A stretch of 10,824 nt of DNA from a virus (IMGVR_UViG_3300029852_000006), one strand, 5' to 3'; positions 4,139-10,660 are shown, counted from the first letter of the stretch. The notes: a model not told the origin generated them from the letters alone. Program-made: numbers and translations.

Positions 4139-4537
4139 TCAAGAATGAGGATTAGTAGCAGCCATAGCGCTCGGTTCCATATGGTCGCCAAAATAAAATT
4201 TATGTACGCCCTTGGCCCCTACCCAGTGGTCAAAACTTTCATCAAAGCTGTCATTATGTACTGCAGCCGGCACCTGAATAATACAGGGCACTTTCTGCGC
4301 CACCATATCGTCTTTGCACCAGCCGCTGTTGCAGGTCCCGCTGCAGGGTTCCAGTACCAGGTCGTCAAACGGGAACATCATATCGCAATAGCCTTTGATA
4401 TATTCGTCATAAACCCGTTCTGCGTTGTGTTCATACGGCGTATCATTCCAGTCGTCGCCCCACCATTCCGCCAGGTCATCATCACCCAGGTAGAACCGTA
4501 CCAGGTTGCCCTTGCGTTCGAAGTCAATAATTTTCAT
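4139..4537 (-). CDS. Hypothetical phage protein (132 aa; WWGDDWNDTPYEHNA motif)
   Basis: GGAGG RBS; ATGA overlap with the RNA-ligase-like gene. Confidence 0.85.
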   Translation of the reverse strand: MKIIDFERKGNLVRFYLGDDDLAEWWGDDWNDTPYEHNAERVYDEYIKGYCDMMFPFDDLVLEPCSGTCNSGWCKDDMVAQKVPCIIQVPAAVHNDSFDESFDHWVGAKGVHKFYFGDHMEPSAMAATNPHS

Positions 4538-5229
4538 GCCCGCGTTTCCTCCATCTTGGTCATATCAGCCGGCAGTTCGTGCCTGCTGTACACGGCCGCA
4601 ACCCGCTGCACCCACTCGCACGGGTCAGGATTATTTGCCCCAAACTCCGCGTTCAGCTCGTCTTGCGTCACCGGCCACTTAAAGCCAAAGTCTTTGCGCT
4701 TGATTTTGCACAGCGGCGCTCCTTCATGCCAGAACACGATGCCCTCCATGGCGGCCAACTCCAACCCGCGCCGGATTCCCTCAAAGCTTGGGTTCGGGAT
4801 GTCAATACTGATCGTGCCATGCCGCACCAGCACGTCCTTGTCCAGCCCGTAGGGATTCTTCTGGAAGTGCGGTCCAATCGCCTCATAGGTTGCATCCGGC
4901 AGGCCATCCCAGCTGTTGTTTCGTGCCGCCACAAACCATTTGTCCGCGGGGTTATCTGCCGCCACTTTCACCCAGTGGGGCCAGTGGCCAGTTACCGGGT
5001 CTGGCTCGTCACACGGGATCGCGCCCTCCGGCACTGCCCTGCCTAGCTTGGCATCAAAGCGCTTGTAGAATCCGCCGTTAATAATCGCGCAGCAGGCACC
5101 GTCAAGCTTCAATGTGGCAATGCTCTCGTCCGTTAGCGCCGCCTCACAGCCCGGCATAATCTCGTCACGGATTCCGGTAATCTTGTGGCCACTGAACTCG
5201 CGCTTATATAAGGTTGGAATTTTCTTCAT
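4534..5229 (-). CDS. ATP-dependent RNA-ligase-like nucleotidyltransferase (DUF5565 / RLIG1-C12orf29-like)
   Basis: Motif I KLDG (ATLKLDGACC), motif III-like YEAIG, motif IV EGIV and motif V KIK; no C-terminal OB domain; GGAGG RBS. Family assignment is from recognition, not a search. Confidence 0.8.
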   Translation of the reverse strand: MKKIPTLYKREFSGHKITGIRDEIMPGCEAALTDESIATLKLDGACCAIINGGFYKRFDAKLGRAVPEGAIPCDEPDPVTGHWPHWVKVAADNPADKWFVAARNNSWDGLPDATYEAIGPHFQKNPYGLDKDVLVRHGTISIDIPNPSFEGIRRGLELAAMEGIVFWHEGAPLCKIKRKDFGFKWPVTQDELNAEFGANNPDPCEWVQRVAAVYSRHELPADMTKMEETRA

Positions 5230-7357: not shown

Positions 7358-7940
7358 TTGGGTAAAAAAATAAGGCCCCAAAGGAGCCTAGAAAGCGGAT
7401 TGTTATGCGGTTTTCTCCGAGAAAGGGAACGATTAAGGAAACAGGGGTTTAGAGGGCGGAAAGTGGAGGAAAGGAGGGACTTGGAGAAAGGAGGAGAAGA
7501 GGTGAGGAGGTGGAAGAGGGAGAAGTGACGTAGATACGCTGGTTTGTGTTTTGAGAGCCGGGAGTGAGATGGGATAACTGACCCGTTTTCCACGCTTTTA
7601 CGTTATTTTTTCTTTTTAACATACCCCCCTATGCAAACTATTGAAGGTGGTTTGCAAGTAGTGGATTTTTAGCGGTATAGCGCTGTTTTATGGCCTTCTA
7701 ACCTGCCGATTTTTGGCGCTTTTCTTGCTTTACAGAGGGTATACCAGGCGCTGTTTTATAGTCCCGTTTATAGTACTATATACCGTGCCGTGCCGTCGGG
7801 TCAGCTGACCTATACTATATAGCATATAATATTTATACCCCGCTATATCTTTGATTTTTGCCGCCTTCTATTTGCAGCGCCGCACCGCACTTTATTTATA
7901 TACTTTTGTTTCATATATTTATAATTTTATTGCAAGTATC

Positions 7941-7969
7941 TTGCTTCGGGGCAAAGAGCTGCTTATTAT
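7941..7969 (+). promoter_or_regulatory. Candidate sigmaA promoter for the sigma-factor-like gene
   Basis: TTGCTT (7941-7946), 17-bp spacer, TATTAT (7964-7969); AT-rich upstream. Confidence 0.5.
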
Positions 7970-8058
7970 ATATGTGTGGGCCGCGCCGTGCGGCCTATAT
8001 GCCACATACCCCGAAGCACACAAAAAACAATACACACAAAAAAATGGAGGCACAAAAA

Positions 8059-8895
8059 ATGTTGAACGAAAAAAAGAGTGACAAAAATCAAAATGTAATT
8101 TTACACTTTGAGTTTTCCGCGCCGGCGCAAAAGTGGAAACTTGCAGATAGTATCACTCCAATATACCGCGCGGCTATTGGAGCCGCCGCCGCCGCCGCAA
8201 AAGTCGCCTATGATAAACAGTATAGCGATACCCTTCGGGACCTATATCAAGCTATTAACAGATATGCCACTAGTGGAATATGGCCCGATAACAGTACGGC
8301 CGCCGCTGATTTAATCCAAACTATTGCCTTGCACTATGTTAACCTTGCAGCCGCCGCAAAACAGCCGCTTGATAATTGGGTACAAGGCGGGGATAGTAAC
8401 TTTACTGTTATACGTATATATAAAAAGAGAAGCTCAAAAGAGCTTGTACTATTGCAAGGCCCCCGCGCTGTTTTGTCGTACGGTATTAACGCGGCAAACA
8501 AATGGATTAACAGTCAACGCGCGGCGCGTATAACCGGCCGTGTTACCTATATAGATAGTACCGGCAAAACATGCACCAAAACAGTACCACTTGAAAGTGT
8601 AGAAAAGTTAACCGAAGGCAATAATGACGCAATACAGGGTAAAGGTACCGGATTAACAGAGCCGCGTTATAGTAACCCCGATACAATTCAATCACGCGCG
8701 CTGTTTTGGGAAGATATCGGTTATATTCTGCGTGATATTAAACGGGGTCAGGATATATGCTATTATACCGCCGCTGGATATACGCAGCAAGAAATTTCAA
8801 AATTATTAGATTGGAGTCAATCAAAAGTTTCAAAAACCCTTGCGACATGCCGTAAAGCTCTGTTAAATAATGGCTTTACACCTTCCACCTTCTAA
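8059..8895 (+). CDS. Phage sigma-factor-like protein (sigma70 region 4 helix-turn-helix), 278 aa
   Basis: GGAGG (8046-8050) places the start at ATG 8059 rather than 7858. C-terminus GYTQQEISKLLDWSQSKVSKTLATCRKAL fits a region 4.2 HTH; DLIQTIAL and AANKWINSQR resemble region 2. Confidence 0.75.
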   Translation: MLNEKKSDKNQNVILHFEFSAPAQKWKLADSITPIYRAAIGAAAAAAKVAYDKQYSDTLRDLYQAINRYATSGIWPDNSTAAADLIQTIALHYVNLAAAAKQPLDNWVQGGDSNFTVIRIYKKRSSKELVLLQGPRAVLSYGINAANKWINSQRAARITGRVTYIDSTGKTCTKTVPLESVEKLTEGNNDAIQGKGTGLTEPRYSNPDTIQSRALFWEDIGYILRDIKRGQDICYYTAAGYTQQEISKLLDWSQSKVSKTLATCRKALLNNGFTPSTF

Positions 8896-8914
8896 TACTC
8901 CATAATACCCCGCT

Positions 8915-8965
8915 ATACCCCGTTATGTTATCCCGAAGCTGGATAGTATAACGGGGTATTTTTTT
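8915..8965 (+). terminator. Intrinsic terminator of the sigma-like gene
   Basis: 19-bp stem ATACCCCGTTATGTTATCC / GGATAGTATAACGGGGTAT (two G-U pairs), 7-nt loop, then a T run to 8965. Confidence 0.88.
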
Positions 8966-9023
8966 GTTATGTTTTAATTGCGGATTATTATTTTAGAATT
9001 TTCTAAAAATTTTTTGAAAAGTT

Positions 9024-9054
9024 GGAATAATACCCCTGTTTTTTTTACGTTATA
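9024..9054 (+). promoter_or_regulatory. Candidate alternative-sigma promoter (GGAAT...CGTTATA)
   Basis: GGAATA 9024-9029 and CGTTATA 9048-9054 lie after the terminator and AT tract and directly before a GC-rich hairpin; ECF-like in appearance only. Confidence 0.35.
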
Positions 9055-9118
9055 GGTGTAAGCACTTACACAGCGCGGCGCGATACACAGCGCGGCGCGG
9101 TACACAGCGCTTACACCT
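9054..9118 (+). repeat. 10-bp inverted repeat enclosing a 17-bp tandem repeat
   Basis: AGGTGTAAGC (9054-9063) / GCTTACACCT (9109-9118); TACACAGCGCGGCGCGR at 9067 and 9084, partial copy at 9101. Confidence 0.9.
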
Positions 9119-9604
9119 TCCCACGCGGTCTAGTTCTGACCTAAAAATAAACAGTACATTTTGCTAAAAATGCGGGGCCTGTTATCCTAGTGAAAATGGC
9201 AGGGCGAACAAAAAACCGATTGGCTATTCGCAAGTTCGGCTTGAACGAAGCATAAATCGGGCTGAAGTCGAAAACTAGGTAAAGTTTGGGAAAGCTATGC
9301 CCTGGAAACTGTTACTTCAGACCTCCCCATGCGTTTGATGAACCTGATTCTGCAAACGGATTCTAAAGCGACTGGCATTTACACTGGCAATATCTCCAAT
9401 GTTATCAGTGTGCCTTTTTGTCCTATCTCCGATGGGGCATTGACTGCTTAAAACCGTTGGCACCGCAAAACCCCGCCGTGCAAATGAAGCGGATTCAATC
9501 ACACAAGGAGTATAAACTTGACTCGGAAATCGAATTCCGCCCCGCAAGGGGTTATTCATAAAACCGAAACAGACCGCCTTTTCGCAAGAAAGGGCGGTTT
9601 TGTC
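9055..9604 (+). ncRNA. Candidate large structured ncRNA (~550 nt), family not recognised
   Basis: No credible ORF on +. About ten nested or crossing helices plus GCAA tetraloops (see findings). 3' end predicted from the hammerhead cut; 5' end is a guess. Confidence 0.6.
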
Positions 9605-9660
9605 GTGTAAGGACTGGCTCTTATACCTGATGAGGGAAAGCATCCCCCACGGAATTGCCA
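9564..9660 (+). ncRNA. Hammerhead ribozyme, type II; predicted cleavage after C9604
   Basis: CC-GAAA (9564-9569); stem III ACAGACCGCCTTTTC-GCAA-GAAAGGGCGGTTTTGT (one bulged U); GUC triplet 9602-9604; stem I GTGTAAG/CTTATAC (9605-9611/9620-9626); CTGATGA 9627-9633; GG 9634-9635 closes a 2-bp stem II; loop I TGGC (9615-9618) can pair with GCCA (9657-9660). Confidence 0.88.
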
Positions 9661-9679
9661 AAATGAAAGGAATTTGACT

Positions 9680-10531
9680 ATGAAAACCGAACTGAAAACC
9701 ACCGATATGGCCGAACTGAAAACCCTGATTGCCACCGCTGAAAACGAAATTAAGCTGAAAACCGTGGCATATAAGGACCTTCTGGCCGCCGATGACGCAA
9801 CCCAAAAGGATCTCGCAACCGCTGAAACGGCATTGACCAACGTGATTGACGAGTACAACGAACTGAAGAAGAACGAAATTTACCTGACCTGCTATCAGGC
9901 AGAATCCCCCATGCTGGCCGCCTGCAAGTATGGCGAAATGACCAAAAAGGTGCTGAAGAAAAAACAGAATGAAAACGGCACCGTAACCATCAGTGTCGAT
10001 GACCGCAAGGCCCGCAATGCAATCGACCTGGTTGACTTTGAGCATTGCAACCCCGAAAAGGGCACTTTGGCCGTCAATGGCCAGTGGCCCTTCTATCTTG
10101 AATCCTGGCTGAAAAGCCTGGCTCTGAACCTTGGCACCGAAATTGAACTTGATGCCAAAGCACAGAATGAACTCGCCGCAAAATATAAGGATGCTGACGG
10201 CGAATTCGCAAACCTGTCCCGCAAATCGTGCAGCATGAAGAGCATGGTTCGTGACTTGCAAGCTATCGTTGATTGCATCGTGTTCATTGATTACGTTCCC
10301 AAAGAGGAACCGACCGATGAATCCGATTCCAAAAAGCCGGTAAAACCGGCCAAAAAGCTGAACGCTTTGAAGGTCACTTCCAAGGATATCAACTACATCA
10401 AAAACCGCATGACCAAGGCGGGCAAAACCGCTTTGGCAATCCGAATGGCAAGCCCGAAGGAAATGCGAATCATTGTTGGCAACGTCATGTACCACCTGAC
10501 CACTGGCAAGCCGTACACGATTGAAGCGTAA
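9680..10531 (+). CDS. Hypothetical protein (283 aa), N-terminal coiled coil, Lys-rich
   Basis: AAAGGA RBS 9666-9671, ATG 9680; strongly biased codon usage (AAC, ACC, CTG, GAA) suggests high expression. Confidence 0.9.
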   Translation: MKTELKTTDMAELKTLIATAENEIKLKTVAYKDLLAADDATQKDLATAETALTNVIDEYNELKKNEIYLTCYQAESPMLAACKYGEMTKKVLKKKQNENGTVTISVDDRKARNAIDLVDFEHCNPEKGTLAVNGQWPFYLESWLKSLALNLGTEIELDAKAQNELAAKYKDADGEFANLSRKSCSMKSMVRDLQAIVDCIVFIDYVPKEEPTDESDSKKPVKPAKKLNALKVTSKDINYIKNRMTKAGKTALAIRMASPKEMRIIVGNVMYHLTTGKPYTIEA

Positions 10532-10571: not shown

Positions 10572-10660
10572 CTTGTTAATGCAGCCCAAAAGGGAAATGA
10601 ATTGAAAAAATGAATTTCCTTCTGGATGGTCACAAGCCCATAAAAATGCAGAGTGGCAAG
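10572..10660 (+). ncRNA. Twister ribozyme, type P1 with P3; predicted cleavage between U10577 and A10578
   Basis: P1 CTTG/CAAG; U-AA site; P2 TGCA/TGCA (10580-83/10647-50); GC 10584-85 pairs with GC 10636-37; P3 CCAAAAGGGAAAT...ATTTCCTTCTGG; P4 ATG/CAT around loop GTCACAAGCC; AAAAA linker; GA then GTGG pairing with TCAC. Matches the twister pattern UAAUGCAGC...GGUyACAAGCCC...GCAGAGU. Confidence 0.92.

Follow-up and report, generated by a model that had tools for sequence, protein, structure and literature searches.

What is encoded in a gap of 784 bases between two genes of a large phage, in which no plus-strand open reading frame (ORF) of more than 47 amino acids is found (8896-9679)? The gap belongs to a 10,824-nucleotide (nt) stretch of DNA from the virus IMGVR_UViG_3300029852_000006, called the window throughout, and separates a gene of 345 amino acids (7858-8895) from a gene of 283 amino acids, here named gene X. 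For its larger part, positions 9055-9604, a preliminary description had proposed an ornate RNA with several pseudoknots, in the size class of the phage-associated ROOL and GOLLD RNAs, whose 3' end is made by a hammerhead ribozyme. We retain the hammerhead and arrive at a different view of the RNA in front of it. With a probability of roughly 55%, 9055-9604 serves mainly in cis as the 5' leader of a phage transcript whose start is predicted at a promoter-like motif and whose cleavage by the hammerhead is predicted after C9604. Because the helices listed for it occur at chance level and covariation is only local, this is likely a long leader of simple hairpins and not an ornate fold. It adds a further case to the ribozyme-processed phage transcripts already known, one whose leader is unusually long, constrained and lineage-specific.

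The source is a large uncultured gut phage, with relatives in IMG/VR represented by contigs of 83-152 kb and one 143-kb record (G001) rated 99% complete; the same sequence was found in assemblies from human gut, pig gut and wastewater. Based on the relatives of gene X, four lineages were distinguished, namely A, which includes the window, B (L028-L032), C (L047-L051), and D (L044). The leader set of lineage A comprised 38 copies including the window, which were reduced to 17 distinct sequences.

Ribozymes on both sides of gene X

Just before gene X, all four lineages display the same succession of CC-GAAAC, a hairpin, GUC or GUA, another hairpin, and CUGAUGA-GG. The 12 distinct variants from these lineages can all be parsed as a type II hammerhead with its core, closed stems I and III, and an open stem II, the cleavage site being GUC in lineages A, B, and C and GUA in lineage D. 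At the eleven junction-proximal pairs, 99.2% of the cells are paired, and five of the eleven pairs reveal compensatory changes (17 cells), compared with 0-2 in slid controls. Loop I and the 3' tail, which commonly form a pseudoknot in type II hammerheads according to PMC3088659, covary as well, reading TGGC/GCCA in A and D, TAGGCT/AGCCTA in B (by eye), and ATGGGC/GCCCAT in C. Judged by its sequence in four lineages, the type II hammerhead at the end of the leader is genuine, and its cut after C9604 is predicted. The stems and the covarying pseudoknot in this comparison give the earlier proposal of a hammerhead-made 3' end at 9604 a sound footing as a prediction. A hairpin at 9575-9600, tried as a candidate terminator, turned out to be stem III of the ribozyme.

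The Rfam model Hammerhead_II (RF02276) recovers the same register with an E-value of 0.072 on 146 bases, below its gathering score, and the larger Rfam scans returned no match to this family. The low score is probably due to the long stem III and to an insertion of about 20 nt before the pseudoknot strand. Located between stem II and that strand (9634-9658 in the window), this insertion is found in lineages A, C, and D, and lineage B is without it. Either GGGA..UCCC or a second hairpin can arise from it. The second hairpin, GCAUCC/GGAAUUGC in A, GGCUUCC/GGAAGAGCC in C, and GCGUCC/GGAACGC in D, has middle pairs that co-vary and a 3' arm that overlaps the pseudoknot strand, and may serve as a switch on ribozyme activity. 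Lineage B differs in its core: its three distinct variants all read CCGAUGA, with C for U at core position 4 (L028 2944-2950 and other B loci).

On its other side, gene X is followed by a second ribozyme or ribozyme candidate in every lineage, so that it is bracketed in four of four. The window carries a twister-P1-like candidate there (Table 1), the only one in the 143-kb phage, and lineage D shows a twister-P1 match of 64.6 bits at the same position (L044 3318-3382), below the gathering score of 67.2. In lineages B (L028 3813-3879) and C (L047 3314-3386), this place is taken by Pistol, with 66.5 and 50.9 bits, above the gathering score of 34.5. Since the class of the 3' ribozyme is swapped at one position between sister lineages, twister-like in A and D and Pistol in B and C, cleavage itself appears to be the selected function, for which the swap provides a clean natural argument. 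About 5 kb downstream of gene X, the lineage B record G002 has another twister-P1-like match (68009-68074), whose 34.7 bits (E 3.9e-7) fall short of the gathering score.

Within lineage A, the proteins encoded by gene X share 98-100% identity, compared with 40-43% towards those of lineages B-D and 53-55% for the relatives P0005 and P0006. The gene X product gave no match in Pfam, PHROG, NCBIfam, or, by profile, PDB, and nothing usable in the protein atlas; its AlphaFold model, with a mean predicted local distance difference test (pLDDT) of 57.9, was too poor for a fold search. One pig-gut contig displays an in-frame insertion of 24 nt behind 9686, near the start of the gene, which mostly repeats the adjacent sequence.

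Local hairpins and constraint in the leader

All pairs of complementary segments listed in the preliminary description are present at the coordinates given there. Any 550-nt sequence, however, offers such a list by chance. In 9055-9604, perfect complementary 6-mer pairs amount to 46, compared with 42.7 +/- 8.5 in 300 dinucleotide shuffles, 7-mers to 12 compared with 10.7, and 8-mers to 3 compared with 2.9; for the core, 9117-9560, the 6-mer pairs number 25 against 26.1 in shuffles. The z-score of the minimum free energy (MFE) is -4.06 for 9055-9604, most of which comes from two hairpins, one formed by the 5' repeat (9055-9117) and the other by stem III of the hammerhead (9569-9603). Taken alone, the core reaches only -1.38, with 9 of 100 shuffles folding equally well or better, and the equivalent stretch in a sister lineage reaches -1.70. 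With a helix list at chance level and such a core, the ornate multi-pseudoknot fold is not borne out. Column shuffling of the alignments yielded z-scores of -3.75 on the plus strand and -1.71 on the minus strand for lineage A, and of -3.17 and -1.71 for B/C; as dinucleotides are lost in this procedure, these values are inflated and usable only as a sign of strand asymmetry.

Comparison of the 17 distinct lineage A sequences provided further insight into single helices. The pseudoknot proposed between CAGGGC 9200-05 and GCCCTG 9299-9304 is contradicted by these relatives, as its 3' arm changes in 8 and in 5 of the 17 and is gapped in 3, with an invariant 5' arm, which gives 13 unpaired cells, 3 gaps, 86.9% of cells paired, and no compensation. 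The other one, CTGAAGT 9262-68 / ACTTCAG 9314-20, stands as a helix, though not necessarily as a pseudoknot. Two of its pairs are compensatory (9265/9317 is AU in 8, GU in 5, and GC in 4; 9267/9315 is GC in 13 and AU in 4); it would cross another helix only if 9186-91/9274-79 forms, and that helix shows no covariation and one disruptive change. Enclosed by 9262-68/9314-20 is a hairpin capped by GGGA, GAAA, or AGAA, in which pair 9284/9295 is GC in 13 and CG in 4 sequences, and the two together form the best-supported domain of the leader, the haplotype of which also occurs in a pig-gut contig. Most of the compensatory changes are found in the same four sequences (L034, L019, L022, and L043) and may therefore stem from a single event.

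Outside this domain, one compensatory change from G-C to A-U (columns 126/139, in 1 of the 17) was seen in a plus-strand hairpin at 9127-9141, formed by GGTC 9127-30 and GACC 9138-41. The remaining nine helices have no compensatory change; four are invariant, three carry pairing-preserving single-sided changes only (one of them with one unpaired cell besides), and single unpaired cells occur in three, so the data hold nothing decisive for or against them. In the region of the GCGGA/TCCGC helix, all changes are single-sided and 98.8% of cells pair. The hairpin at 9381-9411 forms 12 of its 13 pairs, the one mismatch being fixed in 17 of 17, and shows one G-U change, one A-C break, and no compensatory change. 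The three long-range closing helices (9157-64/9480-86, 9172-77/9471-76, and 9325-30/9432-37) are invariant, and as they never vary, the covariation data are silent on them.

The four lineages share one order of elements: the promoter-like motif, CA-rich repeats, 450-650 nt free of ORFs, a hairpin with a U-rich run, the hammerhead, and gene X. Between the leader cores of A, B/C, and D, no similarity was detectable; blastn, shared k-mers, and nhmmer searches from A align only the promoter/repeat and hammerhead ends, and nhmmer profiles of the cores found nothing at E<=100 in either direction, a result that concerns sequence similarity only, no covariance model of sub-domains having been built. 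In the consensus fold of B/C, 15 of 214 pairs are compensatory, compared with 1-3 in slid controls; four of these belong to hammerhead stem I and the other 11 to helices spanning fewer than 65 columns, and no long-range helix of this fold has a compensatory change. Being confined to local hairpins in lineage A as well as in B/C, the compensatory changes lend no support to a global fold. In A as well as B/C, the leader consists of local hairpins in a row, several with GNRA caps, and is constrained without having a conserved global architecture.

No Rfam family matched at its gathering score anywhere in the window, and nothing credible appeared at E<=10 in 8850-9750, where ROOL and GOLLD are absent among the matches; the preliminary description, which did not recognise a family, was right in this respect. 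ROOL and GOLLD keep a recognisable architecture across distant hosts. The likeness to them that had been suggested is lost here, as there is no covariance-model match, the cores cannot be aligned between lineages, and covariation is only local. ARAGORN found no tRNA or tmRNA in the window, and neither CsrA-type GGA enrichment nor a boxA-like signal was seen by eye in the leader, which contains several C-GCAA-G tetraloop hairpins. An ORF of 40 amino acids at 9329-9451 was rejected as coding since it is without a ribosome-binding site and shows 3 synonymous and 4 non-synonymous changes among relatives (counted by hand).

Within lineage A, the leader is 91-99.6% identical among IMG/VR relatives, and the upstream protein goes down to 77%. 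Gene X reaches 98-100% identity in these contigs, so the identity of the leader alone shows only a young conserved block from about 9120. More informative is nucleotide diversity (pi), determined in one alignment of 20 distinct sequences: 0.016 for the leader at 9117-9260, 0.012 at 9323-9560, 0.011 for the hammerhead, 0.008 for the promoter motif, and 0.042 for third codon positions of gene X. The leader is under purifying selection within the lineage, about three times less variable than the adjacent third codon positions, and its constraint about equals that of the ribozyme. The exception is a hypervariable patch at 9261-9322 (pi 0.087), which is where pairing is visibly maintained. Between B and C, the leaders differ at 0.186 of sites, compared with 0.363 at third codon positions of gene X.

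GenBank phages yielded no further relatives, whether by DNA or by protein, and no relative of gene X was found in species genomes. Pattern scans of IMG/VR returned only lineage A contigs and contig 160741 (L013, also matched as L083). In this related contig, the sigma-like gene breaks off at residue 273 and runs into a 49-nt piece of leader (L013 3791-3839; window 9384-9432, 98% identical), after which unrelated genes follow; the remainder of the leader, the hammerhead, and gene X are missing at that position, and the junction is either a recombinant or an assembly chimera. Four hits of the hammerhead-tail pattern in species genomes were discarded as apparent chance matches, the sequence around them being unrelated and apparently coding.

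Promoter-like motif, predicted processing and rival explanations

As the preliminary description had suggested, the leader follows a sigma-like gene and a promoter-like motif. The C-terminus of the upstream 345-amino-acid protein matches sigma-70 region 4 (TIGR02937) with 28.3 bits, below the cut-off of 42.9, and the motif is conserved. It occurs once in the window, compared with 0.01 expected, and the 143-kb phage has one clear copy and one doubtful match. Upstream of the leader it is kept in lineages A, B, and C, and lineage D has the TTATATAGGTG part only. Lineage A carries one copy, and B and C carry three in tandem, about 110-135 nt apart (L028 1898-2205; L047 1420-1720). CA-rich repeats of the type ACACAGC come after the motif in all four lineages (window 9067-9110; L028 1950-1990; L044 1860-1910). 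The repeat of the window, with a period of 17 and 96% matches according to Tandem Repeats Finder (TRF), makes up a 5' hairpin with the closing arms GGTGTAAGC 9055-63 and GCTTACACC 9109-17, and the copy number of the 17-nt unit differs between near-identical lineage A phages. A terminator-like hairpin with a T-run ends the sigma-like gene and probably separates the transcription unit of the leader from it.

Table 1. Features of the leader locus, in window coordinates
Feature	Position	Strand	Details
Terminator-like hairpin and T-run ending the upstream sigma-like gene (7858-8895)	8915..8959	+	19-pair stem, then TTTTTTTGTT
Promoter-like motif	9023..9062	+	TGGAATAAT-N18-TTATAGGTGTAA; transcript 5' end predicted at about 9055-9062
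5' hairpin of the 17-nt tandem repeat	9055..9117	+	repeat 9067-9110, 2.6 copies
Leader core	9118..9560	+	ORF-free, sequence-constrained, local hairpins
Best-supported domain	9262..9320	+	helix 9262-68/9314-20 enclosing GNRA-capped hairpin 9283-87/9292-96
Hairpin ACACTGGCAATAT / ATGTTATCAGTGT	9381..9411	+	in every predicted fold
Helix and hairpin before the hammerhead	9489..9551	+	GCGGA 9489-93 / TCCGC 9536-40, then CCCC-GCAA-GGGG hairpin 9540-51 and U-rich run 9552-59
Type II hammerhead	9564..9660	+	predicted cleavage after C9604
Hammerhead stem II	CC 9564-65 / GG 9634-35	+	open, two pairs
Hammerhead GAA	9566-68	+	GAAA 9566-69
Hammerhead stem III	9569-9603	+	
Hammerhead stem I	9605-11 / 9620-26	+	
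Hammerhead core CUGAUGA	9627-33	+	
Hammerhead pseudoknot	9615-18 / 9657-60	+	loop I UGGC with GCCA
Shine-Dalgarno-like sequence and gene X	9666..10531	+	AAAGGAA 9666-72; ORF, ATG 9680, stop 10531, 283 amino acids
Twister-P1-like candidate ribozyme just after gene X	10573..10659	+	RF03160, 52.7 bits, E 3.4e-11; below gathering score 67.2

Farther away, an ORF on the minus strand (4534-5229) matches a phage RNA ligase (PHROG 14301, E 1.9e-48; Pfam RLIG1, E 1.3e-10). It lies about 4.4 kb from the ribozyme cassette, and any tie to RNA ends made by ribozymes would be pure speculation.

For expression, contigs assembled from public runs were examined. One of them, 250 nt long and from a wastewater library with the label RNA-Seq, covers 9356-9605 and ends one base past the predicted cut, and a metatranscriptome contig covers 9400-9561; both are of low depth (2.3 for the latter) and may be DNA-derived, and their ends are weak hints at most of RNA ends.

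In the explanation that we prefer, a single transcript would begin at the promoter, span the leader, the hammerhead, and gene X, and include the 3' ribozyme; it would undergo self-cleavage at two places, after C9604 and at the twister-like element. The message of gene X would thereby be freed with a fixed 5'-OH end and the stem I hairpin as a cap, whichever promoter copy had fired, together with a leader fragment of about 545-550 nt bearing a hairpin at each end (9055-9117 and 9569-9603). Rather than a globally folded machine acting in trans, the leader would be mainly a cis-acting, promoter-proximal and nuclease-resistant buffer and folding context which the ribozyme discards, much as RNase III removes the leader of the T7 early transcript.

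The preliminary description took the opposite view, namely that the hammerhead is there to free an RNA of about 550 nt, a globally folded trans-acting non-coding RNA of a new family in the ROOL/GOLLD size class. We consider this unlikely, given a helix list at chance level, a core z-score of -1.38, one pseudoknot contradicted and the other unproven as such, compensatory changes that all fall in local hairpins (A and B/C), and cores that cannot be aligned between lineages keeping everything around them; in addition, a related contig is without leader and gene X at this position, bar the 49-nt piece. On the other hand, such an RNA would agree with the lack of an ORF and of an Rfam family, with a constraint as strong as that of the ribozyme (pi 0.012-0.016 and 0.011, respectively), with several C-GCAA-G tetraloop hairpins, and with the hairpin caps that both ends of a released fragment would have. 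Its closing helices are moreover 100% compatible in the 17 sequences, with the variable positions 9478-79 in their bulge.

There is also a small chance that the leader is attenuated in the manner of phage lambda, most transcripts stopping at about 9540-9561 to give an RNA of about 500 nt, and regulated read-through expressing gene X and the genes behind it, so that the hammerhead would trim read-through transcripts only. A regulator-like gene lies directly upstream, and the promoter motif has a single clear copy in the 143-kb phage. By eye, a hairpin and a T-rich run stand immediately 5' of the hammerhead in four of four lineages, but the terminator scan flags them in C and D and not in A and B, and the stem of the window has only 4-5 pairs with the tail TTATTCAT. 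One metatranscriptome contig ends at 9561, weak evidence from a single piece of depth 2.3 that is possibly DNA-derived, and no antiterminator was identified. Very improbable, in turn, is a role at the DNA level (regulator sites, an origin, or a packaging site) or recent shared ancestry of the conserved block instead of RNA function. G-U intermediates and compensatory changes fit plus-strand RNA only, the fold-energy signal is strand-asymmetric, and third codon positions of the neighbouring gene vary about three times as much as the leader in these genomes, even though gene X, at 98-100% identity in these contigs, marks the whole block as young and the copy-number-variable 17-nt repeats at 9067-9110 resemble protein-binding iterons.

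Several points weigh against the cis-acting leader. Assembled contigs cannot show RNA ends or strand, so transcript, start site, and cleavage are all predicted; the hammerhead scores 19.2 bits compared with an Rfam gathering threshold of 37, and the CCGAUGA core of lineage B may weaken cleavage. Purifying selection exceeds what a disposable spacer needs, hence the leader may have a function of its own, and its length is similar in four lineages despite unrelated sequence, for which our favoured explanation does not account. As to the fold, the invariant long-range helices remain compatible with the model of the preliminary description, and the variable positions 9478-79, being the bulge left unpaired in that model, mildly favour it over the RNAalifold alternative. 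A disposable leader accounts only in part for the selection acting on it and for the length kept in four lineages, which keeps the trans-acting rival alive.

The solid finding is the hammerhead and a second ribozyme around one conserved gene. Each of the four lineages keeps a constrained leader of 450-650 nt and unrelated sequence before the hammerhead. A bolder generalisation, which we regard as doubtful, is that ribozyme-released leaders of about 500 nt heading phage operons form a recurrent, fast-evolving class of stable trans-acting phage RNAs, whose sequences turn over and whose release mechanism is kept. If so, the first message of the operon would be accompanied by a leader RNA with a hairpin cap at either end, one conceivable role of which is that of a decoy for host nucleases or RNA-sensing defences. 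Released leaders with a function in trans would represent a new kind of phage RNA; without such a function, the arrangement would be a self-contained natural counterpart of engineered ribozyme insulators.

Comparison with known systems

The ribozyme before gene X shares with Hammerhead_II (RF02276) the CUGAUGA...GAAA core, closed stems I and III, a two-pair open stem II, a GUC or GUA site, and a pseudoknot of 4-7 bp from loop I to the 3' tail. It differs in its long stem III (about 10-11 pairs) and, in lineages A, C, and D, in the insertion of about 20 nt with its GGGA...UCCC hairpin, by which the pseudoknot strand is placed about 20 nt further 3' than in the consensus. With ROOL and GOLLD, the leader has in common the size class of about 550 nt, the phage context, the non-coding nature, and GNRA-capped hairpins, but it displays no conserved multi-domain architecture, the cores of sister lineages are unrelated, and only local helices covary.

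Two phage leaders come close in layout. The late leader of lambda, PR'-6S RNA-tR', is under Q antitermination and shows the same upstream regulator gene, promoter, short non-coding transcript, hairpin with U-run, and downstream operon; our phages differ in that two of the four lineages have a weak terminator-like site or none, that no antiterminator resembling Q was identified, and that a ribozyme follows the site. In the early region of T7, a leader follows the tandem promoters A1-A3, and cuts at RNase III sites yield mRNAs of gene length, the released leader being without an assigned function. One to three tandem promoters (about 110-135 nt apart in B and C), a leader of several hundred nt, and processing sites before and after the first gene recur here, although cutting is predicted to be done by the RNA itself and not by host RNase III, and the leader is longer and sequence-constrained.

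A known parallel is provided by ribozyme-flanked prophage genes. According to Perreault et al. (2011, PMC3088659), hammerheads flank single prophage genes, which suggests the processing of long transcripts into gene-length mRNAs, and bracketing of a single phage gene by self-cleaving ribozymes is what our locus shares with them. In contrast to those genes, gene X lies between a hammerhead and a twister-like or pistol ribozyme, the 3' class varying by lineage, and its 5' ribozyme stands behind an ORF-free leader of 450-650 nt with a dedicated promoter motif.

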